Shown here piece by piece: positions 24,735 through 43,633 of a stretch of 64,000 nt of DNA. The position numbers and the translations under genes were made by a program. The first letter of the stretch is position 1; each line of letters begins with the position of its first letter. Under the pieces are notes generated by a model that searched no databases, was not told where the DNA came from, and saw only the letters and a program-made list of their open reading frames with translations. This DNA comes from Candidatus Xenobia bacterium (lineage in GTDB: Bacteria; Vulcanimicrobiota; Xenobia; Xenobiales; QWHO01), in assembly GCA_045863235.1 (NCBI GenBank), contig BTUM01000022.1, positions 35,148 through 99,147 on the forward strand, read 5' to 3'.

Positions 24735-25096
24735 CAGCCAGGAGGGTCGCGGCTCGCGAGCTTGCCAACCTGTTCGGGGTGCTCTCCAACCCCGACCGAA
24801 TCCGTATCGTGGAAGAGCTGCGCCACGGCGAGAAGGATGTGGGCACCCTGCAGGCGCTGGTCGGCATCAGCCGCCCCCGCGTCTCCCAGCACCTGAGCCT
24901 GATGCGTGCCCACCGCCTGGTGGAGGAGCGACGCGACGGGCGCCACGTCTACTACCATCTGTGCGTCGGGCGACTGGCCACGTGGGTGCTGGACGGGCTC
25001 GGTTTCGTGGAGAGCGAGCTGAAGGGCGGGCTGCGCGAGACTCTGGTCGAGGCGGCCCGTCAGTGGCGCGAGGAGGGTTCCGAGCGCCTCACTTGA
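24731..25096 (+). CDS. ArsR/SmtB family transcriptional regulator
   Basis: FGVLSNPDRIRIV, VSQHLSLMR and RRDGRHVYY. Confidence 0.92.
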   Translation: MPARRVAARELANLFGVLSNPDRIRIVEELRHGEKDVGTLQALVGISRPRVSQHLSLMRAHRLVEERRDGRHVYYHLCVGRLATWVLDGLGFVESELKGGLRETLVEAARQWREEGSERLT

Positions 25097-26078
25097 GGAC
25101 CACGATCTCGACCCGCCGGTTCAGCTGCCGTCCGGCCGGATCATCGCGTCCGTCCGCTCGCTGATTCTGAGCCACCGGATGGGTTTCTCCCAGGCCCACC
25201 ACCTGGGCCTGCTCGGAGTCCCATCCCCCTTCGCTCTCCAGCCACTCGCGCACCGCCTCGGCGCGGCGCTTGGACAGCTTCAGGTTGTAGGAGTCGCTGC
25301 CCTTGTCATCGGTGTGGCCTTCGATGCGGATTCTCTTGCCCGGATAGCGCTCGCTCAGTGACTCGGCGATCTGCGCCAGAGCCTGCTCGGCGCTGGGACG
25401 GATCTCTGCGCTGTCGAAGTCGAACAACACGTCCCCCGACACCGCGTAGACCACCTTCTTGGGGCCCTCTTTCACCACCACGCCGGGGACATCGATCTCG
25501 GGCAACTCGATGGCGATCAGATCGGTATCCACCAGCACGGCCGCTCCCTGGACGTCCACATCGACTCCCGGAACGTCGACGTCCACCCCGAGGTTTCCCT
25601 GCCCCAGGTCGACCCGGGCCCCGGGGACGTTCACCCCGATCCCGCCCTCGCCCAGGTTGACGCTGGTGCCGCCGGCATTGATGGACACGCCGCCCGGACC
25701 CGTTCGTACCCGGGCCGAGCCGCCCTGCACCTGCACCCCGTCCTGGTTGACCTGCACCCGGGCGCTATCGGCCCCGTCCCGGGCCCGGACCGAAACTCCG
25801 TCGGAGCCGGTGCGGACGTCGACCCGGTCGCCATCGGCGCCATCCTGGGCCCGGACGGAGACCCCGTCGGAGCCGGTTCGGACGTCGACCCGGTCGCCAT
25901 CGGCGCCATCCCGAGCCTGGACGGAGACCCCGTCGGAGCCGGTTCGGACGTCGACCCGGTCGCCATCGGCGCCATCCTGAGCCTGGACGGAGACCCCGTC
26001 AGAGCCGGTGGAGGCGGGCTGGGAGGCGCATCCTGTCGTCAGCAAGATGAGAGCCAGGAGGGCAGAGAGTGTCTTCAT
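25089..26078 (-). CDS. OmpA-family lipoprotein with N-terminal 22-aa repeats
   Basis: Lipobox-like LTTGC; DVLFDFDSA, IEGHTD, NLKLSKRRAEAV and NRRVEI. Confidence 0.9.
   Translation of the reverse strand: MKTLSALLALILLTTGCASQPASTGSDGVSVQAQDGADGDRVDVRTGSDGVSVQARDGADGDRVDVRTGSDGVSVRAQDGADGDRVDVRTGSDGVSVRARDGADSARVQVNQDGVQVQGGSARVRTGPGGVSINAGGTSVNLGEGGIGVNVPGARVDLGQGNLGVDVDVPGVDVDVQGAAVLVDTDLIAIELPEIDVPGVVVKEGPKKVVYAVSGDVLFDFDSAEIRPSAEQALAQIAESLSERYPGKRIRIEGHTDDKGSDSYNLKLSKRRAEAVREWLESEGGWDSEQAQVVGLGETHPVAQNQRADGRDDPAGRQLNRRVEIVVLK
25770..26010. repeat. 66-bp coding tandem repeat, about 3.6 copies
   Basis: TCGGAGCCGG anchors at 25801, 25867 and 25933, variant at 25999; encodes TGSDGVSV[QR]A[QR]DGADGDRVDVR. 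Confidence 0.92.
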
Positions 26079-26134: not shown

Positions 26135-27289
26135 TCACCGGGCGGGAGGGCCGCAAAGCCCCGCCAGGCACTCCTCGAAGTCGCGCTGGAAGCGCTCCAC
26201 CCCCAGCTCGCGCCCGGCCAGCTGAGCCTGTAGCTCTCGCTGCAGCTCCTGGCTGCGCAGCACCCGATCGATCTTCTCCACCGCCTCCCCCTCGTGGGCG
26301 TAGAGCAGGCGCTCATCGCGCAGAATCTCCACCTGGCCCCCGTCAGCCGGAGCAAAGGTGAGGCAGCCGGCCGAGACCAGCTCGGCCACCGCCATCCCGT
26401 AGTGCTCCTCGGTCATGCCGTGCAGGCCGTAGCGATGCTCGGTGGCCAGGGCCACCAGCTCATCGCGGCTCAAGTCCTCAGCCAGCCGCACCCAGGGACC
26501 CTCCTGGCCGATTCTCTCCAGGATGCGCTCGCGGTAGGGGGCGTTGTCACGCGAGCCGGCCAGGGTCAGCTCCACCTCGTGGCCGCGCGCGCGCAGCCCG
26601 GCCACGATGGTGATCAGCTTCTCCCACTCTTTGGTGGGGCACTGGCGACCGATGCTGAGAAAGGCGTTGCGGCGAGGTTGCCAGGGCACCTGCGGGAACT
26701 GGCCCAGGGCCGGGGGGTGCAGCACCCGGTAAGGATGAGGACCGTAGGTGCGCTGGAATAGCCTTCCGGTCCACTGCGAATTGACCAGGGTCAGGTTGCT
26801 CAGCATGCCCTCGCGACGATAGCCCGACATGCGCGTGCAAAGGAAATAATACACGCGCAGCACGGCCCTCAGGGTTCGGCGGCTGTACCAGTCGGGATGA
26901 CAGTCGGGGCGCGGGTGCGAGTTCCAGGGATAGTGCACGTACTGCACCGCCCGACTGCCCAGATCCAGCTCGTTGTTGGCCGAGCAGACCAGGTCGTAGC
27001 CTGGTCCCAGGCGCCGGGCCAGAGCCATCAGGTAGTGCAACTTGAACAGCTCGTGGGGTACGCCCAGCCGCTCCATCCAGTAGGAGACCAGCGGCCGCCG
27101 GCACAGGCTCTTCAGCCCCGCCCCGGCCAGGCTGGTGCCGTAATAGGCGTCCACCGCCCCCAGCTCGAGCGGCACCCAGCTCAGCACCGTGACTTCGGCC
27201 CGCTTGACCAGGCTCTGGATCATCCAGACCGCTACCCCGTTGCCACCCCCCGGTGGTTGCAGGGAGGGCTGCACGAACAGAACCCTCAC
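26135..27289 (-). CDS. GT4-family glycosyltransferase (Alg11-like motif)
   Basis: PPGGGNGV, NSQWT and EEHYGMAVAE (EX7E). Confidence 0.85.
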   Translation of the reverse strand: MRVLFVQPSLQPPGGGNGVAVWMIQSLVKRAEVTVLSWVPLELGAVDAYYGTSLAGAGLKSLCRRPLVSYWMERLGVPHELFKLHYLMALARRLGPGYDLVCSANNELDLGSRAVQYVHYPWNSHPRPDCHPDWYSRRTLRAVLRVYYFLCTRMSGYRREGMLSNLTLVNSQWTGRLFQRTYGPHPYRVLHPPALGQFPQVPWQPRRNAFLSIGRQCPTKEWEKLITIVAGLRARGHEVELTLAGSRDNAPYRERILERIGQEGPWVRLAEDLSRDELVALATEHRYGLHGMTEEHYGMAVAELVSAGCLTFAPADGGQVEILRDERLLYAHEGEAVEKIDRVLRSQELQRELQAQLAGRELGVERFQRDFEECLAGLCGPPAR

Positions 27290-27411
27290 AGTTCCCCGAC
27301 CAGCTTCCCTCTTGACACGGGCGCCGAGCAGAGCCTCACCAGCAGCACGCTTTTGCGCATGGCGAGGAGTTCTGATTCGCGCTGCAGGTTCCTACGCCAG
27401 GAGCGCTTGCA

Positions 27412-28371
27412 TCACTCTGCTGGAGAATCCAGCCTCGAGCTGGCCGCCCGCACCAGGATGCCCGCCCCGTAGCAGAGCGGGATCAGCGCCGAGGTGATGG
27501 GCGCTACCAGCAGCGCGCGAAGATCCCGCAGCCGCCAGGCGGCCATCACTCCGTCCGCCAGGAGTGCCGGCGCCCCCAGCAGCAAGAACCGGGGCGCGCT
27601 CACGGCCATCAGGCCGAGCCCCGCGCACAGCGCGGCCGGGGCCAGGTGGGGCCACTCGAACGAATCCGGCCAGCAACGCCAGATGTCCACCCGTCGCACC
27701 CCGTAGGCAAAGATCTTGCGCGCGTGGGTCAGTACCGAGGTGGCCCGGTGGTGCCACACCGGCGCTTCGGGAAGATACAGCATGCGGGCCCCCGCCCGGG
27801 CCACCCGAAACAGCCACTCCTTGTCCTCGCCGGCGTCGTGGAAGCGCTCGTCGAACCCGCCCACCCGCTGGTAGAAGGTCCGCGCCAGGGCCATGTTGCC
27901 CGTGCCCGGCAGGTAGCGCACCAGTCGAGTCGAGCCCCAGCGCAGGCCTCCGGTGGCCAGGGGCGAGTCCACCGACCAGCCCACGCAACGGCTGACCAGC
28001 GGGTCGTCGGCCGGCACCAGGTCGGGCCCGCCCACGCAGTCGGCTTGCCCGGCCTCCAGCGGGGCAAGCAAGCGCTCCAGCCAGTCCGGCTCGGCCCAGG
28101 AGTCGGCATCGATGAAGGCCAGCCATTCCCCCCGGGAATGGGCCAGGGCCGTGTTGCGGGCGGCTGCCGCCCCGCCCCGGCGCGGCCGCGAAAGCACCGC
28201 GAAGCGCGGGTCCCCCGCCACCGCGTGGCGGGCCGCCTCCAGCGTGCCGTCGGGCGAGCCGTCGTCCACCACGATCACCTCGAAGTCGCTTCGGCTCTGG
28301 GCCGCCAGCGACCTGAGGCAGCGGCCGACCAGTTGCTGGCTGCGGTAAGCGGGTACGATGATCGAGATCAC
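27412..28371 (-). CDS. GT2-family glycosyltransferase
   Basis: ISIIVPAY, VVDDGSPD, AAARN, FIDAD and GGFDERF...ED. Confidence 0.92.
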   Translation of the reverse strand: MISIIVPAYRSQQLVGRCLRSLAAQSRSDFEVIVVDDGSPDGTLEAARHAVAGDPRFAVLSRPRRGGAAAARNTALAHSRGEWLAFIDADSWAEPDWLERLLAPLEAGQADCVGGPDLVPADDPLVSRCVGWSVDSPLATGGLRWGSTRLVRYLPGTGNMALARTFYQRVGGFDERFHDAGEDKEWLFRVARAGARMLYLPEAPVWHHRATSVLTHARKIFAYGVRRVDIWRCWPDSFEWPHLAPAALCAGLGLMAVSAPRFLLLGAPALLADGVMAAWRLRDLRALLVAPITSALIPLCYGAGILVRAASSRLDSPAE

Positions 28372-29408
28372 AGCGCCTCCACGATGCGTTCCCAGCGGTA
28401 GCGCTCGGGCAGCTCCGGCGGCGAAGCCCCCGGAGCCGTTCGCACGGCCTCAGCAAAGGCATCCCAATCGTCTTCCACGCGCACTCCTGAGACTTCCAGC
28501 CCGGCCACGCCCAGCGAGGTCGAGACCACCGGCCTCCCGGCCGCCAGGGCCTCCAGTACCTTCAGGCGGGTACCGCTGCCGGTCCGCAGGGGCACGATCA
28601 CCACGTCGCACGCCGCCAGGAGGACCGAGAGGTCGTCCACGAAGCCCAGCAGCCGCACGTTGGCACGCTCCTGAAACTGCTCGCAGCCCACCCCGGCCAC
28701 CAGGAACTCAAAGTCAGGCAGGCGCGGAGCCAGTTCGCTCAATACCAGCTCCACCGCTTCGCGGTTGGCGGCGTAACGCAGTACGCCGAAGAAGAGAGCC
28801 ACCGGTCGCTCCCTGGGCAGCCCCAGCCGCTGGCGAGCTCGAGAGCGGTCACCCTGTGAGCCTGGCTCGGCTCCGTTGGGAACCAGCCGCAGCCGCTTGA
28901 GCCCGAAACTGGCCGAAAGGTCGGCCAGATCGTCGGCTGAGACCCCCCACACCTCGTCCGCCTGGCGGCAGAGGAAGCCCTCCCAGCCCCGCAGCCAGGG
29001 GGTGAGACGAAACTCGACATTGTGCTCGTCGAGCACCAGGGGCCGACCGGACAGGTGCTTGAGCAGCACCCCGTGCAGCCCGGCGATCCAGGTCGAGGCC
29101 AGGATCAGCTCGATCCGGTGGCGACGGATGGCCCGAGCCAGTCGCAGCACCAGCAGCGGGTCAAAGAGCTGCCGCCAGCGGGTGGGCGAGGCCGCCAGGT
29201 GGCCGGCCAGGCCCTCGGGCGGCGGGCCCTGCAAAGGGCCGCGGGTGACCCACCACACCTGGTTGCGTCGACAGAGCTCGCGCACCAGGTGGTGGATGCG
29301 CACCACGGCGCCTCCGTAGAGGGGCCGGTCGGCGTAAGGCGAGAGAAACAGGAGGCGACGCCCGCGCAGGGGTGCTACAGTCCGGCGCATTGACTGTGCG
29401 TCCTGCAA
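28368..29408 (-). CDS. GT4-family glycosyltransferase
   Basis: DEHNVE, VPNG and GSGTRLKVLEALAAGRPVVST. Start uncertain. Confidence 0.88.
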   Translation of the reverse strand: MQDAQSMRRTVAPLRGRRLLFLSPYADRPLYGGAVVRIHHLVRELCRRNQVWWVTRGPLQGPPPEGLAGHLAASPTRWRQLFDPLLVLRLARAIRRHRIELILASTWIAGLHGVLLKHLSGRPLVLDEHNVEFRLTPWLRGWEGFLCRQADEVWGVSADDLADLSASFGLKRLRLVPNGAEPGSQGDRSRARQRLGLPRERPVALFFGVLRYAANREAVELVLSELAPRLPDFEFLVAGVGCEQFQERANVRLLGFVDDLSVLLAACDVVIVPLRTGSGTRLKVLEALAAGRPVVSTSLGVAGLEVSGVRVEDDWDAFAEAVRTAPGASPPELPERYRWERIVEAL

Positions 29409-29484
29409 ATTCTTGACCGCTCCTGTCGTGGTTGAATTCGGCCGCCTCGGCTGCGCTCCTCGTTCACGGAGATAGCCTCCGGAA

Positions 29485-30195
29485 CTACGATCCCTGCAAT
29501 GCCCCCCGGCGCACGAACGAGCGCAGCCCCCACAGGAAGATCTCGGCCCCGTCGCGCCAGGAGGGATTGGAGCGAGGATGCGCCGGCACCACCGGGTAGT
29601 TGTTGGCCACCTTCCAGCCCAGCCGCGGGAGGCCCACGCACATCTGCTGCTCGCAGGTATAGCCCGGCCCCGTCAACAGGTGGGCCACCTCGGCCGCCCG
29701 CCCGGCGCGCATCACCCGCAGGCCGCACAGGGAGTCCTTGTAGGCCACGCCGGTCAGCCAGCGGGCCTGCCAGGAGAGCAGCCGGTTGCCCCAAACCTTG
29801 TGCATCGGGTAGCGCGAGAAATCGCGGAAGGCGATCAGCATGTCCAGTTTCTGGCTGGCCAGGCTCTCGCACAGAGGGGGGATCTCCTCCAGCGGGTGCT
29901 GGCCGTCCCCGTCGCACAGCACCAGGGGAGCATCGGGATCGACTTCTCCGGCCAGTACCAGGGCGTGCACCGCCCAGAGGCCCTGGGCCAGGGCCCGCGA
30001 CTTGCCCCGGTTGACCGGCTGCAAGATCAGGTGGCACTTTGGCTGGTGGGCCGCCCACTCGACGAGCAGGCGCGGGGTCTCGTCGCTGGAGCCGTCGTCC
30101 ACGACCACCAGGCGCGAAGCGACCGAGGCCACTTTCTCGAGCACTCCGGGCAGGTGCTGCTGCTCGTTGTGCACCGGGATCAACAGGATGGCCAT
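29485..30195 (-). CDS. GT2-family glycosyltransferase (DPM1-like polyprenol-phosphate sugar synthase)
   Basis: IPVHNE, VVDDGSSDET, NRGK, DGDGQH and DSLCG. Confidence 0.85.
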   Translation of the reverse strand: MAILLIPVHNEQQHLPGVLEKVASVASRLVVVDDGSSDETPRLLVEWAAHQPKCHLILQPVNRGKSRALAQGLWAVHALVLAGEVDPDAPLVLCDGDGQHPLEEIPPLCESLASQKLDMLIAFRDFSRYPMHKVWGNRLLSWQARWLTGVAYKDSLCGLRVMRAGRAAEVAHLLTGPGYTCEQQMCVGLPRLGWKVANNYPVVPAHPRSNPSWRDGAEIFLWGLRSFVRRGALQGS

Positions 30196-30199
30196 GGCG

Positions 30200-32188
30200 T
30201 CAGTGAGTCATCCGCTGGCTGCAGGGAGCGGGGTCGATAAGGATCCCGTTAAAAGGAACGAGCGTCGAGTTCGTGTTGAAGCCGCTCAGCCTGACCCCCG
30301 ACACGGTGGAGCCGATGGTGAAGAAGTTCGTCCCGTTGGCGGCGTAGTCGAAGATGAACTCCGAACTGAGTGGCACCTCGAAGAGCGAGATAAGACCTCC
30401 GTTCTGGAAGCTCAGGATCACCATGAACTCGAGCGGGATGCGGAAGACCGTGGTGGGGATCACCAGGCCGGACGGGCCGGAAATGAAGCCGGTGGGGAAG
30501 CTCGTGTTGGTCAGGGCCAGCGGAGCGCCCGCCTGGTTGAGCAGACCGCCCTGCAGCACGTTGAAGGCAAAGAACTGGCCGTTTTGCTGGGCGGCAAAGA
30601 CGTTGTTGTCCGAGCACGCCACCTGGGACAGATTGGTGAAGTTGATGGGGGCCGCGTTGCAACGGAAGATGACGTCGTCGGTATCATCCGTGGCCACGAA
30701 GGTGGGCGTGATGTTGCTCAGGTCATACAGAGGCTTGTCGAGGTTGTCGACGGGTACCTGGCAGATGCTGTTGAACGTGTTGTCCTTGAAGTGGACGAAG
30801 GTCTCGTCGCCGACCTTGAGGCCCGAGAGGCGATTGCCGAACGAGTTGGTGGTGTTCAAGCTGATGATCGACTCGACGGTCATGGCCTGGGTCTGGCTGT
30901 TGAACAGGATGCTGATGAACCGCCTGTTCAGGTTGTCCCAGCAGTAGACGTGATGGCCGCCGGGGTGCACGAAGATGCTGTTGATCGAGGACAGGTTTGC
31001 GTTGGAGAGAAGGCTTCCGGTCTGATACAGTCCCGTGGTGGGGTCGAGCAGACAGTGCTGAATGCCCGTCTGGTTCAGGGCCACGAAGATGTCGCGATTG
31101 TTTCGGCTCAAGTCGTGGGTGCGGGGCAGCCCGGGCAGGGTCAGGTTGCCGAGATGGGCCAGGTTGTTGTTGTTGAACGCGAAACTGGCCAGACTCTGGC
31201 TCTGTTGCTGGGCCACGGTGAGGAGAGTGGGGCCCACGAACAGCTGGCAGTTGCCGTTCACGCCGTTGGTGCTGGCCGTGACGGTCCCTGACCCCGGGGT
31301 GGTCAGGGTCGTCAGAAAACCGGTGGTGTTGATGTTGCCCAGCGCGTTGTCGCTCAGCGACCAGGTCACCAGGTTGTTCCCGCGCGTCTTGGTGCCATCG
31401 AGATGGGTCAGGATGGCATCGAATTGACGACCCGTATTGAACGGGGCGTAGACCGAGTTGGGAAACACCTCGATGCTGACCACGTTCCCGGAAGGCGTCG
31501 CGGTGACGGTCAGGTCAGCACTGGCGGTCAGACTGTCGAGGGTCGCGATGACCTGCGTCTGGCCGGGGGCCAGGCCGGTCGCGGTGCCGGCCGCGTCCAC
31601 CGAGGCGATGCCCGGGTCGACGACCTGGAAAAGCGACTGGTCGACGGCATTGAAGCTCGAGCCGTCGGGCAAAAAGGCGGTCACGATGAAGACCTGGCTC
31701 TGGCCTACCTGAACCGAAGCCGAGGTCGGGGAGATCTCGATGCGGGTCGGCTCGATCACCGAGACGAACGGGGGGTCGATGATGGTGACGGTTCCTCCGG
31801 CGGGAACGACCACCTCCACCGAGCCCGTGCCGACCAGGACTCCGTTCGAAAAATAGCGGAACTCGAAGCGGACCACCCGGGTGGAGACGTTCTCGAGCAG
31901 CTTCTCCGGCACTTTGGGGAAGCTGAAGCCCCTGGCAGAGACCTCCTCCCGGGCGGCTTCACCGGTCTCGACCGGGAACGCCTGGACGCCGTTGGCGTCG
32001 AAGCCGGTGACCTCGATCGTGTCCACGAAGCTGGGCACTCTGGGGTCAAGCTCGAAGCGCAACAGGACGTTGCCGAACTGCTCACCGACCGGACCCAGGG
32101 GGGATCCGATCAAGGGACCGCTCCCGTCCGAGCAGGCGGCTGAAAACAGCCCCAGCAGCAAGATCAGGACGAGTTTGAGGTGGCGCAT
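30200..32188 (-). CDS. surface lipoprotein with two Ig-like (Big_2) domains and an Asn-rich beta-propeller-like region
   Basis: Lipobox-like FSAAC; IEISPTSASVQVGQ...IASVDAAGTATGLAPGQTQVIAT and VTWSLSD Big_2 patterns. Confidence 0.8.
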   Translation of the reverse strand: MRHLKLVLILLLGLFSAACSDGSGPLIGSPLGPVGEQFGNVLLRFELDPRVPSFVDTIEVTGFDANGVQAFPVETGEAAREEVSARGFSFPKVPEKLLENVSTRVVRFEFRYFSNGVLVGTGSVEVVVPAGGTVTIIDPPFVSVIEPTRIEISPTSASVQVGQSQVFIVTAFLPDGSSFNAVDQSLFQVVDPGIASVDAAGTATGLAPGQTQVIATLDSLTASADLTVTATPSGNVVSIEVFPNSVYAPFNTGRQFDAILTHLDGTKTRGNNLVTWSLSDNALGNINTTGFLTTLTTPGSGTVTASTNGVNGNCQLFVGPTLLTVAQQQSQSLASFAFNNNNLAHLGNLTLPGLPRTHDLSRNNRDIFVALNQTGIQHCLLDPTTGLYQTGSLLSNANLSSINSIFVHPGGHHVYCWDNLNRRFISILFNSQTQAMTVESIISLNTTNSFGNRLSGLKVGDETFVHFKDNTFNSICQVPVDNLDKPLYDLSNITPTFVATDDTDDVIFRCNAAPINFTNLSQVACSDNNVFAAQQNGQFFAFNVLQGGLLNQAGAPLALTNTSFPTGFISGPSGLVIPTTVFRIPLEFMVILSFQNGGLISLFEVPLSSEFIFDYAANGTNFFTIGSTVSGVRLSGFNTNSTLVPFNGILIDPAPCSQRMTH

Positions 32189-32289
32189 CGGGTATCCCCC
32201 TGGTAGAAATGGCATGCCTGCAGTTCGCAATTTGTACTATCGGTTCCTGTCCGGGGGAAACCTGCACCCGGAGCGAGTAACCAGTGCCG

Positions 32290-34512
32290 ATGTCCCGACT
32301 CTCATGGCTGGTTCTGGCGCTGCTGACGGTCACCTGGGTGGCGGCACGAACTGTCTCGTGTTGGCCGCTGGTCTTCCCCGAGCCGGGCCAGGTGCGCTTG
32401 CTCGAGATGGACAGCTACTTTCACGCTCGTCATGCCCGCTCGCTGGTCAAGAATTTTCCCCTCATCCAGCGCTGGGACCCGTCCAGTCATTATCCCCACG
32501 GCCAGCGGGGCGAGAATCAGGGCGGTTACGACCTGCTCCTGGCCAGCCTGGCTCTGGTGGCAGGGATGGGACGTCCCGACCAGGCCACGCTGCTCACGAC
32601 GTGTGCCTGGACACCGGTCGCACTGGGAGCTCTGGCTTTCGTGCTGGTGGGCCTGCTGGGTCGCCGCCTGGCGGGTCCCCGGGCGGGGCTGCTGGCGCCA
32701 TGGCTGCTTCTTGTCTATCCGGCCACGCTGGCCACCTACGCCGTGCTGGGGTTTGCCGACCACCACGCCTTCGAGGTCTGCCTGGCTCTGGCCACCTGCC
32801 TGGCGCTGGTGCTGACGCTCGAGAAGCACAGCCCCCTCTGGCTCGCTCTCCCGGTCGTCGTCCTGCTCTACAGCTGGGCCGGGTCCGCCCTCTACCTGCT
32901 GGTTCTGGCGCTCTGTCTTTCGGCCGCCGCCCTGGCGGGGGCCGAGAGGGTGGCTCGCCTCAGCCTGAGCACGGCCGGATGGGTGGTGCTGCTGTGGCTC
33001 CTGCCCACCCTGATCTGGCCCGATTTGAGCCTGGGAGATCGCTACCAGGGGGCGGCCCTGGCCGCCCTGCTCGGCTTCGGGCTCGGGGTGCCGGCCCTGG
33101 CCCAGGGATGGACCTGGCGTGCCCGGCCGGCAGGCAAGCTGCTGCTGGCAGGACTGGGGCTCGTCTGTCTGGCCCTGCTGGCCTGGCCGCCCGTCCCGGG
33201 ACTGCTGCACGCCCTGCTCGACCCGCGGCCTTCGACGATCCTGGAGCATCGCGAGGTGACCGTCTCTCTCTACACCGGCTATTTCGGCCTGGCTGGCTGG
33301 CTGGCCCCGCTGGGCCTGCTGGCCGCCTGGCGCCGTCGTCAGCCTGCTCAGCTGGCAGCCGCCCTCTACGCGTCCCTGCTGGTGGCTCTCTGGGTGCAGA
33401 CGCGGGACTTCTCCTACCTGCCGCCTCCCTTCGTGGCCCTGCTGGCCACTCTGGCCCTGGCGATGCTACCAGCCCGGGCTCTGGCGACGGCAGCGGTGGT
33501 GCTGACCCTGCCAGCCGTGCTCGGATGGACGACCCCGGCCTGGCCCCCGACCGACCTGCTGCGCCAGGCTCTGCTGGTCACTCCCGGCTGGACCCAGGCC
33601 GCCGAGTGGCTGAGCCAGAACAGTCCACCGCCCAGCCTCGACCTGGACAGCCCGTTGCGCCCGTTTCGAGGGAACCTGCACTACCCTCCGGGCACCTACG
33701 GGGTCTACACCCCCTGGGACCGCGGTCACCTGGTCTCGTTCCTGGCCCGCAGGCCGGTGGTGCTCAGCTCCACCGAGTCCCGCGAGGGGGCCCTCTGGCT
33801 GGCCATGGATCAGGAGGAGCAAGCCCTGCAAGCCCTCAAGGCCGACTGTGAGCCAGGGGAGCGGGTCGAATACGTCATGCTCGCCAGCGAGGTGATTTCG
33901 GACGGCTTTCTCACCCACATGCAGGTGGCCGGCATCCGCCCCGAGCAGATCCTCGAGCCGGCTGAAGAGGTGACCGTGGCCAACCAGAAGTTCCCGCTCC
34001 CCGTTTACGGCGAGCTCTACCGTCGCTCCATCTCGGCCCGGCTGTTCGAAGACGTTGGATTGAGGCATTTTCGCCTGATCTACGAGACTCCGACCAAAAG
34101 CTTCGTGACCTACGTGGCTCGCTACAACCAGGCACTCAACAAGATGGACGTCCGTCGGCGAAGCCTCCCCCTGCGGGAAGTCGAGGGTCTGGCCCGGCTC
34201 GACGGGGCTCCGGGCGTGTTTCCGGTGGGCGAAGGCTACCTCTATGGGGGGCGCGTTCTCTCCGAGGTCAAGGTCTTCCAGATCGTGGCGGGCGCTCGGG
34301 TGACGGGCCAGGAAGCCTCCCTGGTGTTGGGCTGCAAGTCCAGCGGCCGGACCTGGACTTACCGCCAGACCGGTCCCGACCTGGTGCTGCCTTATCCGAC
34401 CACCAGCGCGGTCGGTGAGGTGAGCGCTCAGGGACCGTATCTGATCGACGGACGAACGCTGCACGTGACCGAGGATCAGGTGCAGCGCGGTCTGGAAGTG
34501 CGCCTTCCGTGA
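32290..34512 (+). CDS. STT3/AglB-family oligosaccharyltransferase, archaeal-type C-terminus
   Basis: EMDSYFHAR, HYPHG, ADHH, STILE, many TM helices, YGVYTPWDRGH (WWDYG position), LRHFRLIYE, VKVFQIVAGA and LPYPT. Confidence 0.85.
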   Translation: MSRLSWLVLALLTVTWVAARTVSCWPLVFPEPGQVRLLEMDSYFHARHARSLVKNFPLIQRWDPSSHYPHGQRGENQGGYDLLLASLALVAGMGRPDQATLLTTCAWTPVALGALAFVLVGLLGRRLAGPRAGLLAPWLLLVYPATLATYAVLGFADHHAFEVCLALATCLALVLTLEKHSPLWLALPVVVLLYSWAGSALYLLVLALCLSAAALAGAERVARLSLSTAGWVVLLWLLPTLIWPDLSLGDRYQGAALAALLGFGLGVPALAQGWTWRARPAGKLLLAGLGLVCLALLAWPPVPGLLHALLDPRPSTILEHREVTVSLYTGYFGLAGWLAPLGLLAAWRRRQPAQLAAALYASLLVALWVQTRDFSYLPPPFVALLATLALAMLPARALATAAVVLTLPAVLGWTTPAWPPTDLLRQALLVTPGWTQAAEWLSQNSPPPSLDLDSPLRPFRGNLHYPPGTYGVYTPWDRGHLVSFLARRPVVLSSTESREGALWLAMDQEEQALQALKADCEPGERVEYVMLASEVISDGFLTHMQVAGIRPEQILEPAEEVTVANQKFPLPVYGELYRRSISARLFEDVGLRHFRLIYETPTKSFVTYVARYNQALNKMDVRRRSLPLREVEGLARLDGAPGVFPVGEGYLYGGRVLSEVKVFQIVAGARVTGQEASLVLGCKSSGRTWTYRQTGPDLVLPYPTTSAVGEVSAQGPYLIDGRTLHVTEDQVQRGLEVRLP

Positions 34513-34597
34513 AGATCCCGCCGGGAGCCGGGCCGGCTGCTCGATGCGCCCTTCTCGCGGAGCGCCGGCCCATGAGAGCCCCGGTGGACGCCGCCCG

Positions 34598-36220
34598 ATG
34601 AAACCAGCTCTCACCAACGCCCTCGCCTGGCTCGCTCGCCCGGTGGACGCCGCCAGCCTGGGACTGTTCCGCATCCTGTTCGGTCTGTGCATGCTCTACA
34701 GCTACCTCGACTACATCCGCAACGGCGGCCTGCACGGAGAGATGATCGCCCCGCGCTTCCACTTTCGCTACCCCGGCCTGGAATGGGTGAGCGATCCTTC
34801 CCCCGGCCTGGTGGTCGGCGCCATCGTGGGTTTCAGCCTGTTGCTGGCCCTGGGCTTGCTGACCCGCCTGGCCTCGCTCGGCTTTCTGGTCAGCTATGTC
34901 TGGTGGTTCTTATCCGACGCGGCCTACTACAACAACCACTACTACCTGATCTGTCTGCTGGGCGGCCTGTTCCTGGTCACCAATCCCGAGCGCTGGGGCT
35001 CCGTGGACAGTCGGATCTGGCCCCGGCCGGCGGCTATCCCGGCCTGGCAACTGTACATCTTTCGTTTCCAGCTGATCGTGGTCTACTTCTACGGCGGCCT
35101 GGCCAAGCTCAACGCCGACTGGCTGCGCGGCATTCCGGTGAAGTACTGGCTGGCCGAGCGGGCCGCCTCGCGAGGGCTCGACTTCCTGGCCTGGCCGGCC
35201 ACGACCACGCTGGTCACCACGGCCGGCATCCTGATCGACCTGACGGCGCCCTTCCTGCTGCTGTGGCGCCGGACGCGCTGGCTGGGACTGGCTCTCATGG
35301 TCGGCTTCCACCTGGCCAACTCCTACCTCTTCAGCATCGGCATCTTCCCCTGGCTGATGCTGGCTGCCCTGGTCTTGTTCCTCGAGCCGGACGCCCCCCG
35401 CCGCTGGTTGCGCAGGCCCCCCCTGAGGTTGCCCGAGCCACGCCCCCTGCCAGCGCTCGTCGTGGCCTGCCTGCTCGTCTACGCCGTGGTCCAGCTGCTC
35501 CTGCCTCTGCGCCACCTGGTCCGGGGCCAGGACGTGGCCTGGGACGAGGACGGCCACCTCTGGTCCTGGCGCATGAAGCTGCGCGACAAGAACGGTGCGG
35601 TCGGTTTCGTTCTGCTCGATCGGGGCCAGCTGAGCGTGCCGCATGTGCACGCGGACCTGACCGCCTACCAGGTGCGCCGCATCCAGGGGCGTCCCGACCT
35701 GATTCGCCAGTATGCCCGGCATCTGGCTGAAAAGACCGGTTGCCAGGTGCTGATCTGGACCTGGACATCCCTCAACCGCCGACCCTGCCAGACCCTGCTC
35801 GACCAGGAGGGGCGCCTGTTCCCCTTCCTGGACCTTCAGTTCCCGCCCCCCGGCCCGGCCAACCTGGTGCTGGCCATCGACCAGCGTCAGGAGCGGGGGG
35901 TGGAAGGCTTCTACCACGTCGACCTGCTCGACGCGCAGAATCACCCGGTGGGCTCGCGCCGCGTCCAGCGCGACTCCAGCGCCACCAGGCAGTTCATCGA
36001 GCTCTCGGGCCTGCCGGCCGGCCGCTTCCGCCTGCTGGTGCTGGCCCTCTCCCCCGGGGGGCTGGTGCTGACCCACTCGGTGGCCGACTGCGAGCTCCAA
36101 AGCGGTGACAATCGCTTCAAGATCTCGCAGGCCCGCTTCATCCCTGGCCCCCCGCTGGGCCTGATCAGCGGCGCAGGATCGTCCTCGAGCGGGCCGAATC
36201 GCCCGCAAGCCGCGCCGTGA
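34598..36220 (+). CDS. HTTM-domain / vitamin K-dependent gamma-carboxylase-like membrane protein
   Basis: ASLGLFRILFG, YNNHYYL, YFYGGLAKLNADWL, FHLANSYLFSIGIFPW and WSWRMKLRDK. Confidence 0.9.
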   Translation: MKPALTNALAWLARPVDAASLGLFRILFGLCMLYSYLDYIRNGGLHGEMIAPRFHFRYPGLEWVSDPSPGLVVGAIVGFSLLLALGLLTRLASLGFLVSYVWWFLSDAAYYNNHYYLICLLGGLFLVTNPERWGSVDSRIWPRPAAIPAWQLYIFRFQLIVVYFYGGLAKLNADWLRGIPVKYWLAERAASRGLDFLAWPATTTLVTTAGILIDLTAPFLLLWRRTRWLGLALMVGFHLANSYLFSIGIFPWLMLAALVLFLEPDAPRRWLRRPPLRLPEPRPLPALVVACLLVYAVVQLLLPLRHLVRGQDVAWDEDGHLWSWRMKLRDKNGAVGFVLLDRGQLSVPHVHADLTAYQVRRIQGRPDLIRQYARHLAEKTGCQVLIWTWTSLNRRPCQTLLDQEGRLFPFLDLQFPPPGPANLVLAIDQRQERGVEGFYHVDLLDAQNHPVGSRRVQRDSSATRQFIELSGLPAGRFRLLVLALSPGGLVLTHSVADCELQSGDNRFKISQARFIPGPPLGLISGAGSSSSGPNRPQAAP

Positions 36221-37620
36221 CCTTCATCTCTTTCTCCTTCGTCATCCTCTTCTCGGTCGCGCTCCTGGCCCGGCTCACCATCGGACGCAGGAAGACCGAG
36301 CCCACCTACCTGGGCCTGATCCTGTTCCTGAGCGTCATCTTCTACAGCTGGGAGGTGCCGGCTTACCTGCTGGTGCTGCTGGCCAGCGTGCTGATGGACT
36401 ATGTCTCGGGCCTGCTCATCGCCGCCCAGGCGGTCTACGAGCGTCGCCGCCTCTACCTGATCATCTCCCTGACCCTCAACCTCGGTCTTCTCTTCTTGTT
36501 CAAATACCTCGACTTTGCCCTGGCCAGCCTGGGCTGGCTGCTGGGAGTCCCCGAGCAGGACGTGCCCCGGTTCAACCTGATCCTGCCCCTGGGCATCTCG
36601 TTTTACACCTTCCACTCCATGAGCTACGTCATCGACGTGTACCGCGGCTACATCACCCGCATCAAGCGCTTCGACGACTACCTGATGTTCGTGATCTTCT
36701 TCCCCCAGCTGGTGGCCGGCCCCATCGCCACGGCCCGCGACTTCGTCTACCAGATCCACCGCGTGCGCCGACTGCACTGGGTCACCTTCTGGCACGGCGT
36801 CTACCTGATGATCTCGGGCTTCTTCCTCAAGATGGTGGTGGCCGACAACCTGGCTCCGGCCGTGGACGTGCACTGGCCCGTGGCGGCCGGCCCCAACGGG
36901 GACGCGGCCATGGCTTTCTGCTCGGCGGCCCTGTTCGGGGGCCAGATCTTCGCCGACTTTGCCGGCTACACCAACATCGCCCGGGGGGCTGCCTACCTGC
37001 TGGGCTTTCGCCTGATCATCAACTTTCGCGAGCCCTACATCTCCCAGAGCCTGCAAGAATTCTGGACCCGCTGGCACATCTCGCTCTCGCGCTGGCTGCG
37101 CAATTACCTCTACATCCCTCTGGGCGGCAATCGGCACGGCAGCTGGCAGACCTACCGCAACCTGATGCTCACCATGCTCCTGGGCGGCCTGTGGCACGGC
37201 GCCGCCTGGACCTTCGTGGTGTGGGGTCTTCTGCACGGGGTGGGCCTGGCGGTGGAGCGGGCCCTGGGCCTGAACCGTCCCGGCCGTTCTCGCCTGGTCC
37301 GCCTGGGTTACTACCTGGTGGTGCAGGCCTACATCCTGGTGACCTGGGTCTTCTTCCGCGCCACCAGCGTGGGCGAGGCCCTGCAACTGCTGGGCAACCT
37401 GGCCGTCTTCAAGACCCCCTGGGCCGGCTGGGGAGAGCTGATCATCGCCATGTCCTTCCTGCTGCCCATCGTGCTCATGCACCTGCGGGCGGCCCTCATC
37501 CAGGCCGGCCTGAGCCACCCCGCCGGCAAGTACGAGAAAGCCTTCCTGTGCGGTATCATGCTGTACGCCATCCTGACCTTGAGAGGCCAATCGGATGCCT
37601 TCCTCTACTTCCAGTTCTAA
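36217..37620 (+). CDS. MBOAT O-acyltransferase (AlgI/PatA/DltB family)
   Basis: LPLGISFYTF, FFPQLVAGPI, EFWTRWHISLSRWLRNYLYIPLGGNR and GLWHGA; GTGA overlap with the HTTM gene. Confidence 0.95.
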   Translation: MTFISFSFVILFSVALLARLTIGRRKTEPTYLGLILFLSVIFYSWEVPAYLLVLLASVLMDYVSGLLIAAQAVYERRRLYLIISLTLNLGLLFLFKYLDFALASLGWLLGVPEQDVPRFNLILPLGISFYTFHSMSYVIDVYRGYITRIKRFDDYLMFVIFFPQLVAGPIATARDFVYQIHRVRRLHWVTFWHGVYLMISGFFLKMVVADNLAPAVDVHWPVAAGPNGDAAMAFCSAALFGGQIFADFAGYTNIARGAAYLLGFRLIINFREPYISQSLQEFWTRWHISLSRWLRNYLYIPLGGNRHGSWQTYRNLMLTMLLGGLWHGAAWTFVVWGLLHGVGLAVERALGLNRPGRSRLVRLGYYLVVQAYILVTWVFFRATSVGEALQLLGNLAVFKTPWAGWGELIIAMSFLLPIVLMHLRAALIQAGLSHPAGKYEKAFLCGIMLYAILTLRGQSDAFLYFQF

Positions 37621-38551
37621 GCTCACCTGGAAGACCAACCTGCTCATCGTGCTGATGGGCCTGGTCGGCTTTGGCCTGGCCGCGGGAGTCGGCCAGGCCT
37701 GCTACGAGACGCTGCCGGGCCTGAAGGGCTGGCTCTTCACCCGGGCCGACGAGCTGCCTCGCCAGAGCCACACCGGCCACGCGATCAGCGACTTCCTGGT
37801 TTACCTGCACGGCCTGGAGGGGGTCGTGGAGCCCATGCGCCAGGCCCAGGTGATCTTCGTGGGTAGCAGCCGGGCAGGATTCTCCTTCCGAGACGACTTC
37901 GTGGCCCGCTTCGAGCAGGCCACCGGGCTCAAGACTTACGCCCTGGGCTTCCCTCGCTCGGGCATGGCCCTGGCCGAGAAGCTGATCGAGCGCTACGATC
38001 TGCGCCCCCGGGTGCTGGTGGTGGCGGTGGACAACGTCTTTTTCACCGACTTCGTCAGCCAGGAGATCCTTCAGGCCGAGGGCCTGTCGCAGTGGGAGGC
38101 CTGGCGCCAGCTGCGTGAGGACCGCCTCTCGTGGTGGAGCCGCCACCACCTGCACCGCTACATCCCCGAGTTCGAGATTTTCGGCCACCAGACCATCTCG
38201 GTCATCTACCGCAACTACCGAAATGGCGGCTGGATCGTGGTGCAGCACCCGGAGGAGCGCCTGCCGGTGGTCGAGCCCACCGCCCCCATGCCGGCCCCTC
38301 AGCGGATCAAAGCCCGGGAGTTCGTGGCCCGCATGCGTGAGCGCGGGGTGACGGTCGTCTTCACCGCCGTGGCCGGAGGAGACTACGCCCTGGAGGACCT
38401 GCGCGAGCTCGCCCGCGAGCTCGACGTCCCCTTGCTCGCCCCCCGCCTGGAGGGCCTGACCACCGGCGATCCGGTCCACCTCGACGGCCCCAGCGCCCGG
38501 CGCTTCTCGGACGCCTTCCTGGAGGAGTTTCGCCGCTGGTGGAAGGGTTGA
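37595..38551 (+). CDS. membrane-anchored SGNH/AlgJ/DltD-like protein
   Basis: N-terminal TM, FVGSSR block and C-terminal DPVHL (DxxH); overlaps the MBOAT end. Confidence 0.6.
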   Translation: MPSSTSSSKLTWKTNLLIVLMGLVGFGLAAGVGQACYETLPGLKGWLFTRADELPRQSHTGHAISDFLVYLHGLEGVVEPMRQAQVIFVGSSRAGFSFRDDFVARFEQATGLKTYALGFPRSGMALAEKLIERYDLRPRVLVVAVDNVFFTDFVSQEILQAEGLSQWEAWRQLREDRLSWWSRHHLHRYIPEFEIFGHQTISVIYRNYRNGGWIVVQHPEERLPVVEPTAPMPAPQRIKAREFVARMRERGVTVVFTAVAGGDYALEDLRELARELDVPLLAPRLEGLTTGDPVHLDGPSARRFSDAFLEEFRRWWKG

Positions 38552-38554
38552 GCC

Positions 38555-38941
38555 GTGGAACTGGTTGGATGCACCGCCCAGGGTGATTGGTATCGAGTCT
38601 ACTACGCGGACTTGAGCGCCGACTCGGACCCGCTCGCCCGAGCCTGCGGGACGGCGATGCTCGAGTTGCTTTCAGCTCTGGCAAGAGCTCCCTGGCCCGG
38701 CCGGGTCTACCTGCTTACCTCGATGAGCACCCTCTGCCTCCTCAGCCAGGACAGCTACGAGCCGGAGGGCTGGCATGTGCGCATCGAGCCGCCCTGGGAG
38801 GGAGTCTTCATCATCGAGTTCGACCCGCCCGGGTCGAAGACTCCGGTCGCTGTGACCGCAGTCACGCCCGATGAGGCGGTGGAGAAGGTGCTTGCGGGTA
38901 TGCGCGCCTCGGGTGGGTGGGCAGGGCATCCAGGCAGCTGA
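38555..38941 (+). CDS. hypothetical protein
   Basis: 128-aa ORF starting 3 nt after the upstream stop; globular-looking composition. Confidence 0.5.
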   Translation: MELVGCTAQGDWYRVYYADLSADSDPLARACGTAMLELLSALARAPWPGRVYLLTSMSTLCLLSQDSYEPEGWHVRIEPPWEGVFIIEFDPPGSKTPVAVTAVTPDEAVEKVLAGMRASGGWAGHPGS

Positions 38942-41403: not shown

Positions 41404-41446
41404 GTTTTCTGTCTACCTGCTGCCCGGTGGTCCATCCTGCTACAGT

Positions 41447-41620
41447 AGCGCGCACTGATCATGTAAGGATATCAGTGCGCGCTCCTTTAGAAACTACTTG
41501 AACGTTACGCGCCCAGTTCCTGATCGAAACTGTGCGCTTCACTGTAAAGTGCAAGGCCTTTGGTCTTACACCTTGCGGCTGGAACGCAGTTCCGGCGCGT
41601 TCGTCAGGCGCTACAGGAGC
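41447..41620 (+). ncRNA. candidate structured RNA / long structured 5' leader
   Basis: Extended -10 (TGCTACAGT, 41438-41446), 13-bp hairpin, then a long closing stem enclosing four short hairpins (manual pairing only). Confidence 0.4.
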
Positions 41621-41717
41621 CCGAAGCCAAATTGCCAGCACATGAAAGCCGCTGGTGGATCAAAACGGCTGTCGCAGATCATCGCGGGCGGGCTCGGGTC
41701 GGCCTATCCTGGAGCCT

Positions 41718-42781: not shown

Positions 42782-43633
42782 GTGGGAAACGATGTGCGGT
42801 CCCTGGGCAGGGTCCTGGTCGAGAAGACGCAGGCGGGCATGCTGGCCGCGGCTGAGCGTCACGGCCTCCTGGTCGAGGGGAAAATCGACCTGCGGGGCCG
42901 GAGGGTGAAGTTCGAGCACACCGATCTCGACCTGAGCGCTTTCTTGCTCGAGGGCGCCGATCTGACCGGCTCGCTCCTGACCAACTGCAGCGGCGAGAAG
43001 GTCAGCCTGCGAGCCTGCAAGCTGAAGAACGTCCGAATCGAATGCGTAAAAGCGAGAAAAACATCCTTTCTGGGCGCCTCCTTTGACGAAGCGCTTCTCG
43101 AGAGCGTGTATCTTGGCCCGCGCACCCTCGACCTTTCAAAGACGAGCTACCGGGGTGCCCGGCTCGAGGATGTCACGTTCATGCTGGCCCGGCTTCCCGA
43201 GGCAGACTTCACCGGCGCCCGCTTGACCGACTGCTCCTTTCGGCGAGGTATCCTGGACGGCGCGAGTTTTCGCGGCGCCACGCTAACGCGCGTCTCACTC
43301 GAGGAGGCCACTCTGGTGGGGGCCGACTTCACCGATGCAGACCTGCACCGGATGGACCAGTGGGAAGAGCCGAACTACCAGGGGGCAATCATCAGCGACG
43401 AGCTGCGCTACCAGTTCGGGGTGGTCCGAGACCCGGCCCGTCGGGTGGACGCGCTGATCGAGAGCCGAGCGCTTGGAGCGGAGGCCACGGAGGGGTTGCA
43501 GCGCCTGAAGGCCCGATTCTCCGACCTGTTATCCTATCCAGAGTGCCTGCTGATCGGGCGCGAGCTCGAAGAGGCCATCCCCCCTCACCTTTTTCCAACG
43601 ATTCTCAAAGCTCTGAAGGACGATAGCTCCTGA
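42782..43633 (+). CDS. pentapeptide repeat protein
   Basis: Repeated ADLTG/ADFTG/ASFRG pentapeptides. Confidence 0.85.
   Translation: MGNDVRSLGRVLVEKTQAGMLAAAERHGLLVEGKIDLRGRRVKFEHTDLDLSAFLLEGADLTGSLLTNCSGEKVSLRACKLKNVRIECVKARKTSFLGASFDEALLESVYLGPRTLDLSKTSYRGARLEDVTFMLARLPEADFTGARLTDCSFRRGILDGASFRGATLTRVSLEEATLVGADFTDADLHRMDQWEEPNYQGAIISDELRYQFGVVRDPARRVDALIESRALGAEATEGLQRLKARFSDLLSYPECLLIGRELEEAIPPHLFPTILKALKDDSS

Follow-up and report, generated by a model that had tools for sequence, protein, structure and literature searches.

Organization of the oligosaccharyltransferase locus

The 64,000-nucleotide stretch of Candidatus Xenobia bacterium DNA analysed here (the window) harbors, between positions 26135 and 38551, a gene for an AglB-like oligosaccharyltransferase (OST) homologue and eight further open reading frames (ORFs). 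The positions and strands of the nine ORFs were given beforehand, and their families were checked by Pfam and NCBIfam. Four glycosyltransferase genes (GT4a, GT2a, GT4b and a DPM1-like GT2) and a gene for an Ig-domain lipoprotein lie on the minus strand, and the OST gene diverges from the lipoprotein gene across a 101-bp gap, followed on the plus strand by genes for an HTTM protein, an MBOAT acyltransferase and an SGNH-like protein. The HTTM and MBOAT genes overlap by 4 bp, and the MBOAT and SGNH genes by 26 bp. In all of this the ORF, Pfam and NCBIfam checks agree with the preliminary description of this DNA, which had named the nine genes, their families and strands, the divergent layout and the overlaps of the last three. 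The genome (8.36 Mb; 97.6% complete) contains a single STT3 match. A scan of the locus yielded no promoter-like and three terminator-like sites, both at chance level. Contigs from three RNA-labelled runs overlap parts of the locus, although transcription, strand and operon structure cannot be read from contigs.

The OST homologue and its clade

The translated product of the OST gene (32290..34512, plus strand; 740 amino acids) matches the Pfam STT3 profile above its cut-off of 24.5 (Bitscore: 69.4; e-value: 5.7e-19), and further matches to the AglB core and AglB_L1 are found. It scores 213.8 bits on TIGR04154, the archaeosortase A-associated OST model, under the curated cut-off of 450, and four of its relatives score 142 to 238 bits on the same model. 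The best sequence match in the PDB is AglB-L of Archaeoglobus fulgidus (AfAglB). A profile built from 117 OST homologues retrieves AfAglB-L (e-value: 3e-97) and human STT3A (e-value: 1e-24) among 11 PDB matches at an e-value of ≤0.01, none of which is a chain named PglB. The AlphaFold model of the protein (pLDDT: 96.4) retrieves A. fulgidus AglB with Foldseek (e-value: 1e-28; TM: 0.77), followed by eukaryotic STT3 (e-value: ~1e-16) and PglB (e-value: 8e-12; TM: 0.48), with DPY19, ArnT and PMT much weaker (e-value: 1e-8 or worse). Fold and profile thus identify the OST as an STT3/AglB homologue of archaeal type, which bears out the initial assignment. Its dN/dS ratio of 0.21, calculated against the ortholog in the same-genus genome G002, indicates that the gene is not decaying.

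The family comprises at least 149 protein clusters at an e-value of ≤1e-30, with labelled members, among the best 80 of 291 candidates, from the Myxococcota, Verrucomicrobiota, Latescibacterota, Bacteroidota, Pseudomonadota and Vulcanimicrobiota. In a FastTree phylogeny of 79 proteins, 26 bacterial OSTs are split (support: 100) from 52 euryarchaeal-type AglBs and one Patescibacteria-labelled protein. Of the STT3 phylogeny proposed beforehand, which was to include both AglB and PglB, the first part is thereby supplied, while the tree contains neither PglB nor eukaryotic sequences and carries long-branch warnings, so that no donor or root is claimed and assignment to the PglB type was judged by profile and fold scores. 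The OST belongs to a distinct, apparently bacterial clade. The Patescibacteria-labelled contig (L067) encodes a canonical Methanomicrobiales-like AglB with the WWDYG motif and phosphate-binding Arg intact, and is explained either by an independent transfer or by misbinning. Two OST copies are present in some genomes, namely a Latescibacterota record (L025, L026) and G029 (L016, L018), while a second, partial copy is located upstream in a Bacteroidetes record (L033).

Bacteria have gained an AglB-type gene from euryarchaea at least twice (PMC4973528), so that finding an OST of archaeal type in a bacterium is no novelty in itself. An archaeal plasmid AglB is treated in 10.64898/2026.10.06.756670. 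No description of the present clade, its Arg-to-Asp change or the locus was found in a literature search that left subscription journals mostly outside, and the supplements of bioRxiv 10.1101/2025.10.15.682550 may list such genomes.

Retained and altered active-site residues

Active-site residues were counted in 117 aligned clade members and 53 archaeal-type controls. All but one of the former (116 of 117) are database proteins without names that are only presumed to be bacterial. The 26 labelled or handle-based loci agree with them, with Asp or Glu at position 373 in 26/26 and the first Trp of WWDYG in 0/26.

The residues that in AfAglB bind the metal and the acceptor Asn amide have equivalents in the OST (PMC8342417). 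These are Asp41 (32410..32412, plus strand, as for all residues below; AfAglB Asp47; 117/117), Asp157-His-His159 (32758..32766; AfAglB D161-H-H163; D157 and H159 in 117/117) and Glu319 of TILE, its TIXE motif (33244..33246; AfAglB E360; 114/117). The first Asp of DXD, the D-x-H/D element and the TIXE Glu are accordingly all retained. The OST is thus predicted to be like canonical OSTs in fold and chemistry, yet it departs from them at three defining motifs.

First, WWDYG is rewritten as PWDRG (33712..33726). Its first Trp (position 475) occurs in 0/117 clade members versus 51/53 controls, and Asp477 is variable in the clade (present in 75/117). Second, the DK motif is lost, with Gly539 in the OST at a position that is variable in the clade and Lys in 49/53 controls; no separate search for an MI-type equivalent was made. 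Third, the Arg that binds the donor phosphate (AfAglB Arg426; Arg in 53/53 controls) is replaced by Asp373 (33406..33408; Asp in 115/117), which aligns with the STT3A Arg, the AfAglB alignment alone being ambiguous by one residue. The Asn of NPFQ/NNFQ, found in 53/53 controls, is furthermore replaced by Ser in 97/117 clade members. A clade-specific Arg is found at position 61 (32470..32472; 110/117), where archaeal controls mostly carry Trp, and Arg61 may possibly act as the replacement phosphate ligand. The placement of both Asp373 and Arg61 rests on sequence alignment. Neither PWDRG nor Asp373 had featured in the preliminary description.

In characterized enzymes, WWD binds the Ser/Thr at +2 of the acceptor, the following Tyr binds the N-acetyl group of the donor, and the WWD pocket is described as strictly conserved in STT3 proteins (PMC10859629), while the donor-phosphate Arg is common to AglB and PglB (PMC8342417). 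The PglB of Campylobacter jejuni is inactivated by W457S and by Y460N/C (PMC3527161, Table 2), and Desulfovibrio PglBs that are relaxed at -2 retain WWDWG (PMC12229607). Given the changes in WWDYG and DK, canonical Asn-X-Ser/Thr glycosylation should not be assumed for the OST.

A conserved core of OST and three glycosyltransferases

The OST is present in 10/60 relatives, seven of which belong to one genus, and a profile survey of 251 genomes of the phylum, in which at most four candidates were scored per genome, returned the same 11 positives, that of the window included. Three of the glycosyltransferases follow its distribution. GT4a (26135..27289, minus strand; Pfam GT4), an ALG11-like GT4 enzyme, was found in 9/60 relatives, GT4b (28368..29408, minus strand; Pfam GT4) in 8/60 and GT2a (27412..28371, minus strand; Pfam GT2, e-value: 1.6e-38), a GT2 enzyme with a hydrophobic C-terminal part, also in 8/60, at e-value cut-offs of 1e-30, 1e-35 and 1e-45, respectively, which were of our own choosing. 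All of these relatives are OST-positive, and none of the three proteins occurs among the 50 OST-negative genomes. In 5/11 loci the OST gene stands divergently opposite GT4b-GT2a.

A survey of 26 non-redundant bacterial OST loci (2 to 22 kb each) showed PglK-like ABC genes in eight, GT4b in seven, GT2a in six, GT4a in five, ALG1-like genes in five, MurG-like genes in three and ALG2-like genes in two, with the ALG1-like label presumptive and based on sequence motifs. The DPM1-like GT2, Ig lipoprotein and HTTM genes were each found once, in every case in G002, and MBOAT and SGNH in none, the G002 copies of the latter two lying past a contig break. The conserved core is the OST with GT4a, GT4b and GT2a, and is not a chance juxtaposition. 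Conservation of gene order among relatives, on which the preliminary description had made its interpretation depend, therefore holds for these four genes and fails for the DPM1-like GT2, HTTM, MBOAT and SGNH genes.

Structural neighbors of GT4a in the Atlas include eukaryotic ALG11 (TM: 0.81), ranked behind bacterial and archaeal clusters, and its match to ALG11_N has an e-value of 0.31. PDB sequence searches returned no relative of GT4a or of the ALG1-like protein and only generic GT2s for GT2a. The genome itself has no ALG1 or ALG2 homologue (tblastn with the L036 proteins; e-value: ≤1e-6). The placement of distant clade members among ALG1-like (5/26), ALG2-like (2/26) and MurG-like (3/26) genes points to a lipid-linked-oligosaccharide pathway. 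Two such clusters, L036:8640-17972 (Myxococcales label) and L074:4583-14175 (Opitutaceae label), have the OST flanked by ALG1-like, ALG2-like, MurG-like GT28 and PglK-like ABC genes and look like a eukaryote-type early N-glycan pathway. In addition, L036 encodes a homologue of GT4a, and two genes of the PEP-CTERM type are present at L074. A further locus, L164 (G011:C164:14000-23779), harbors five tandem GT4a paralogues downstream of the OST cassette, plus GT25- and GT32-type genes, which suggests that glycan extension varies by copy number.

The ABC exporters adjacent to the OST in 8/26 loci are of the PglK/HepA type. In agreement with the preliminary description, a family scan of the nine genes and three flanking ORFs revealed neither a flippase nor a priming phosphoglycosyl transferase. 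Three PglK-like ABC genes (C122:2086-3777, C7:82365-84152 and C46:25995-27911), three PF00953 genes and four PF02397 genes are, however, encoded on other contigs as flippase and priming candidates, so that their absence from the locus is not a gap in the pathway. The three ABC candidates cluster with OST-linked ABCs of the same order (SH-aLRT: 99), but none stands out as the ortholog.

The DPM1-like GT2 (29485..30195, minus strand) is of the polyprenol-phosphate type (DPM1/ArnC/AglJ), matching the NCBIfam models PpgS (e-value: 1.5e-13) and AglJ (e-value: 1.3e-9), both under cut-off, and ArnC as its best PDB match (e-value: 4.8e-9). It occurs in 10/60 relatives, nine of which are OST-negative, and was rejected on this account as a general priming enzyme and core component. 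A role in priming within this genus is possible. Priming of a monophosphate carrier by a GT2 is conceivable because AfAglB uses such a carrier (PMC8342417) and because, in Haloferax, there is evidence for the addition of the first sugar by the GT2 enzyme AglJ (PMC2952790).

The Ig-domain lipoprotein as candidate acceptor

The gene divergent from the OST (30200..32188, minus strand) encodes a putative lipoprotein of 662 amino acids with Big_2 Ig domains and a signal peptide ending in Cys19, and its product is a candidate acceptor. Synonymous divergence (dS) from G002 is raised in both the lipoprotein (0.60) and the OST (0.71), as against 0.15 to 0.42 in the other nine comparisons, which would fit an exchange of the two genes as a block. 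The lipoprotein contains 52 Asn residues and 12 N-X-S/T sites, where nine are expected (p = 0.18), and sequon counts do not exceed those of shuffled sequences in any of six orthologs (p = 0.09 to 0.33). Across five orthologs, sequon Asn residues are kept at 47/60 positions versus 131/199 for other Asn, and sequon Ser/Thr at 51/60 versus 390/536 for other Ser/Thr (joint p = 0.02; single tests p = 0.08 to 0.10; uncorrected).

Sequon excess was also sought beyond this protein, with gene and signal-peptide calls made by our own heuristics. Genome-wide, the frequency of Ser/Thr at +2 of Asn is 0.161 versus 0.12 to 0.18 at other offsets (70 predicted lipoproteins), and 247 N-X-S/T sites are seen where 252 are expected (65 lipoproteins), neither of which constitutes an excess. 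A set of 14 candidate exported proteins was drawn from loci close to OST or glycosyltransferase genes in relatives (13 proteins) and from a cluster on contig C46 of this genome (one protein); one of the 14 has sequons at p<0.05, uncorrected. Sequon enrichment was accordingly discarded as proof of N-glycosylation. Taken together, these weak signals cut both ways, and neither prove N-glycosylation nor exclude a residual preference for Ser/Thr.

The C46 cluster (C46:1-50000; L138, L139) is a large polysaccharide cluster of lower GC3 with three MBOAT genes, a WecA-like gene, a PglK-like ABC gene and sugar biosynthesis genes, together with an Asn-rich lipoprotein with 19 sequons. In four of five Verrucomicrobiales/Akkermansiaceae loci, a small secreted protein without a Pfam match is encoded directly upstream of the OST (L030:3895-4578, L035:9275-9904, L038:904-1527 and L043:1053-1760). 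Each has more sequons than its shuffled sequences (p = 0.016 in one case), and these proteins are possible dedicated acceptors or partners.

Proposed function of the OST

We suggest, at a probability of roughly 0.5, that the OST moves a lipid-linked glycan to Asn residues of exported proteins, following an acceptor rule that is either relaxed or different from the canonical one. On the cytoplasmic side, GT2a, GT4b and the ALG11-like GT4a would build a short glycan attached to a polyprenyl carrier. Priming would fall either to a GT2, which would use a monophosphate carrier in the manner of euryarchaea, or to a phosphoglycosyl transferase whose gene lies outside the locus. A PglK-type ABC exporter, adjacent to the OST in relatives and encoded on another contig here, would flip the lipid-linked glycan. 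The OST would then transfer it to proteins of the periplasm or the cell surface, of which the divergently encoded Ig lipoprotein would be an example.

Several observations weigh against this proposal. The OST has Pro and Arg at the places where changes of W457 and Y460 inactivate PglB, and as such may not act on peptides at all, while the slightly better conservation of canonical sequons in the lipoprotein fits a still-canonical enzyme equally well. A lipoprotein homologue is present in only 1/26 OST loci, and none of the three ABC candidates has a close ortholog in G002 (best: 40%, to C122). The co-occurrence of the OST and its glycosyltransferases is furthermore drawn from relatives that are not independent, most of the OST-positive genomes being of one genus, and from cut-offs that we chose.

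The strongest alternative, although an unlikely one, is that the OST has left N-glycosylation altogether and acts on a non-Asn acceptor, which may be a hydroxyl group on a protein, a lipid (lipid A, for instance) or a different glycan of the envelope, with Asp373 as a new catalytic or ligand-binding acid. The complete loss of Trp475 in the clade, the loss of the DK Lys, the frequent replacement of the NPFQ/NNFQ Asn by Ser, the incomplete retention of Asp477, the near-invariance of the new Asp373 and the absence of an N-X-S/T excess in the lipoproteins of this genome would all be explained. Under this alternative, however, there would be little reason for the retention of the Asn-amide acids D41 and E319 in their TIXE frame and of the whole AglB-L architecture, to which DPY19, ArnT and PMT are far weaker fold matches.

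It is somewhat less probable that the OST has stayed a conventional N-OST, recognizing N-X-S/T with what is left of the motif (Trp476-Asp477), and that the 12 sequons of the Ig lipoprotein are its sites. W476, D477 and TILE are indeed present in the enzyme of the window, and the somewhat better-kept sequons in the five lipoprotein orthologs are in its favor. Even Asp477 is, however, missing from 42/117 clade members, substitutions equivalent to those in PWDRG inactivate PglB (PMC3527161), and no sequon excess is observed in the six orthologs or genome-wide.

The acylation and HTTM genes

The MBOAT gene (36217..37620, plus strand) encodes a PatA/AlgI-type acyltransferase (Pfam) with its catalytic His in GLWHG and a C-terminal FLYFQF, which corresponds to the FXYXXF acyl-shuttle motif of the MBOATs in PatA-type pairs (PMC12148441). 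The adjacent gene (37595..38551, plus strand) encodes a protein that matches no Pfam or NCBIfam family and carries G-S-S at residue 90 and D-P-V-H, a D-x-x-H motif, at residue 292; DUF1574/SGNH clusters are among its Atlas neighbors (score: 0.93; TM: 0.56), and the SGNH fold assignment rests on these motifs and neighbors. The MBOAT is thus paired with an adjacent partner that has the expected Ser, Asp and His, and together with the catalytic His and the shuttle motif this argues that MBOAT-SGNH is a real envelope acyltransferase pair, and one that appears not to depend on the OST.

The HTTM gene (34598..36220, plus strand) encodes an HTTM domain and a VKGC lumenal domain (Pfam), and its product matches human gamma-glutamyl carboxylase (GGCX) with an e-value of 8.6e-35. 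Equivalents of H160, K218, W223, D263 and F299 are kept, while K217 is replaced by Ala and Y395 by His (residue roles from PMC12647623). With its HTTM and lumenal domains, K218 and H160, the protein is a GGCX homologue, for which carboxylase activity is at most predicted.

The genus member G001 allows the parts of the locus to be separated. It is ~88-92% identical on both flanks and lacks the stretch corresponding to approximately 26330..36145 (GT4a through HTTM). At the joint, a decayed 3′ piece of GT4a runs directly into the final ~70 bases of HTTM, remnants which indicate a loss in G001. The MBOAT and SGNH genes of G001 are intact (97% and 95% identity, respectively). Synonymous and non-synonymous changes in MBOAT number 32 and 7 on the G001 branch, compared to 21 and 4 and 41.5 and 6.5 on the other two, and the MBOAT-SGNH pair is under purifying selection in this OST-less genome.

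These data bear on the reading given in the preliminary description, namely that the genes form a single, self-contained pathway in which a glycan is built, transferred and acylated. As considered here, MBOAT-SGNH would acylate the glycan of the OST and HTTM would add a further modification. Co-orientation and overlapping ends are seen in this genome and, with a contig break in between, also in G002. The remnants in G001 demonstrate that the complete gene order is the ancestral one in this group of three genomes, and strong HTTM-VKGC matches (e-value <1e-60) occur in 4/10 OST-positive and 0/50 OST-negative relatives. This pathway is nevertheless very improbable. G001 has lost the OST, glycosyltransferase and HTTM genes and kept MBOAT while the junction remnants decayed, and neither MBOAT nor SGNH is present in any of the 26 OST loci. 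This genome has a second, paralogous MBOAT-SGNH pair on contig C73, where it stands by itself with no OST nearby. HTTM is found in 1/26 OST loci, from the same genus, and at none of the five HTTM loci retrieved from other genera is there an OST in the vicinity. The claims of a self-contained pathway and of an OST-HTTM-MBOAT-SGNH unit are therefore abandoned. The acylation genes are likely a separate system from the OST, and HTTM, the DPM1-like GT2 and above all MBOAT-SGNH are genus-level neighbors and not required parts.

Flanking features of the window include an OmpA-family lipoprotein gene (25089-26078), the N-terminal half of whose product has tandem repeats of ~22 residues, a 128-amino-acid ORF without a family (38555-38941) and a pentapeptide-repeat-like ORF (42782-43633). 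The latter two have no counterpart at the matching place in the fetched G001 and G002 regions and are likely small insertions. One or two short dispersed repeats of ~100 bp, folding into a hairpin, are located at 41440-41645, with 38 blastn matches in this genome and dozens in G001.

Implications of the altered active site

That the OST is a lipid-linked oligosaccharide hydrolase or carrier recycler, without transfer to any macromolecule, is extremely improbable. Its degenerate acceptor pocket and the hydrolase side activity of OSTs of all three domains (PMC8342417) are in favor of such a role, but hydrolysis alone would hardly account for a peptide-binding architecture of 740 amino acids and a TIXE Glu kept across many phyla. 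Returning to transfer to Asn under an altered rule, we tentatively advance a more specific version, to which we give clearly less than even odds. This widespread bacterial AglB branch may constitute a sequon-free N-oligosaccharyltransferase that would accept Asn without the +2 Ser/Thr rule, bind its lipid donor at a remodelled site (Asp for Arg426; new Arg61) and receive its substrate from ALG-like GT4 enzymes by way of a PglK-type flippase, and would thereby represent a bacterial N-glycosylation route separate from PglB.

A clade that keeps the catalytic acids yet alters both the acceptor pocket and the phosphate site provides a natural test of those residues. Such a clade could yield a single-subunit enzyme for sites that PglB and STT3 ignore, which is of relevance to glycoengineering, while the link to ALG1-, ALG2- and ALG11-like genes makes it a candidate end-point for the recently reported bacterial ALG enzymes. 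The locus offers a compact four-gene core, a neighboring candidate acceptor and a naturally occurring deletion strain to compare it with. The idea of an OST-HTTM-MBOAT operon is of little interest after testing.

Comparison with known systems

The MBOAT-SGNH pair resembles PatA/PatB and AlgI/AlgJ (PMC12148441) in its catalytic His, FLYFQF shuttle and adjacent partner with Ser and Asp-x-x-His, and differs from them in a partner that matches no Pfam model and in not being tied to the OST. The HTTM protein shares with GGCX and the bacterial MloH (PMC12647623) the HTTM and lumenal domains and the five kept residues, but not K217 and Y395, and its homologues in other genera do not stand beside an OST.

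As in the Campylobacter pgl locus (PglB, PglK, PglC and PglA/H/I/J), a bacterial STT3-family enzyme is associated with GT4 and GT2 enzymes and, in relatives, with a PglK-like ABC exporter. The OST is, however, far from PglB, the gene order differs, no bacillosamine or PglC genes are among the nine, and neither a PglK flippase nor a PglC-type priming enzyme is encoded at the locus. The preliminary description, too, had judged the layout unlike pgl.

A further comparison is with the bacterial ALG1 and ALG2 mannosyltransferases (Xu et al., bioRxiv 10.1101/2025.10.15.682550). Members of the OST clade adjoin ALG1- and ALG2-like genes in Myxococcota and Opitutaceae, and L036 encodes GLGGAER and EHLGIVPLE, near the ALG2 motifs of that study, in whose available text no mention of STT3, an operon or a gene cluster was found. 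This genome differs from such systems in lacking ALG1 and ALG2, and has only the ALG11-like GT4a.

The closest known counterpart of the OST is A. fulgidus AglB-L (PDB 7E9S, 3WAK, 3WAJ and 5GMY), a euryarchaeal single-subunit N-OST, with which it shares the same fold, including the C-terminal AglB_L1, and the equivalents of D47, D161-H-H163 and E360. Unlike AfAglB-L, it has PWDRG for WWDYG, Asp for Arg426 and a new conserved Arg61, and is without the DK Lys618 and the NPFQ Asn. Its host, moreover, is bacterial, and its relatives pair the OST with a PglK-type ABC exporter.

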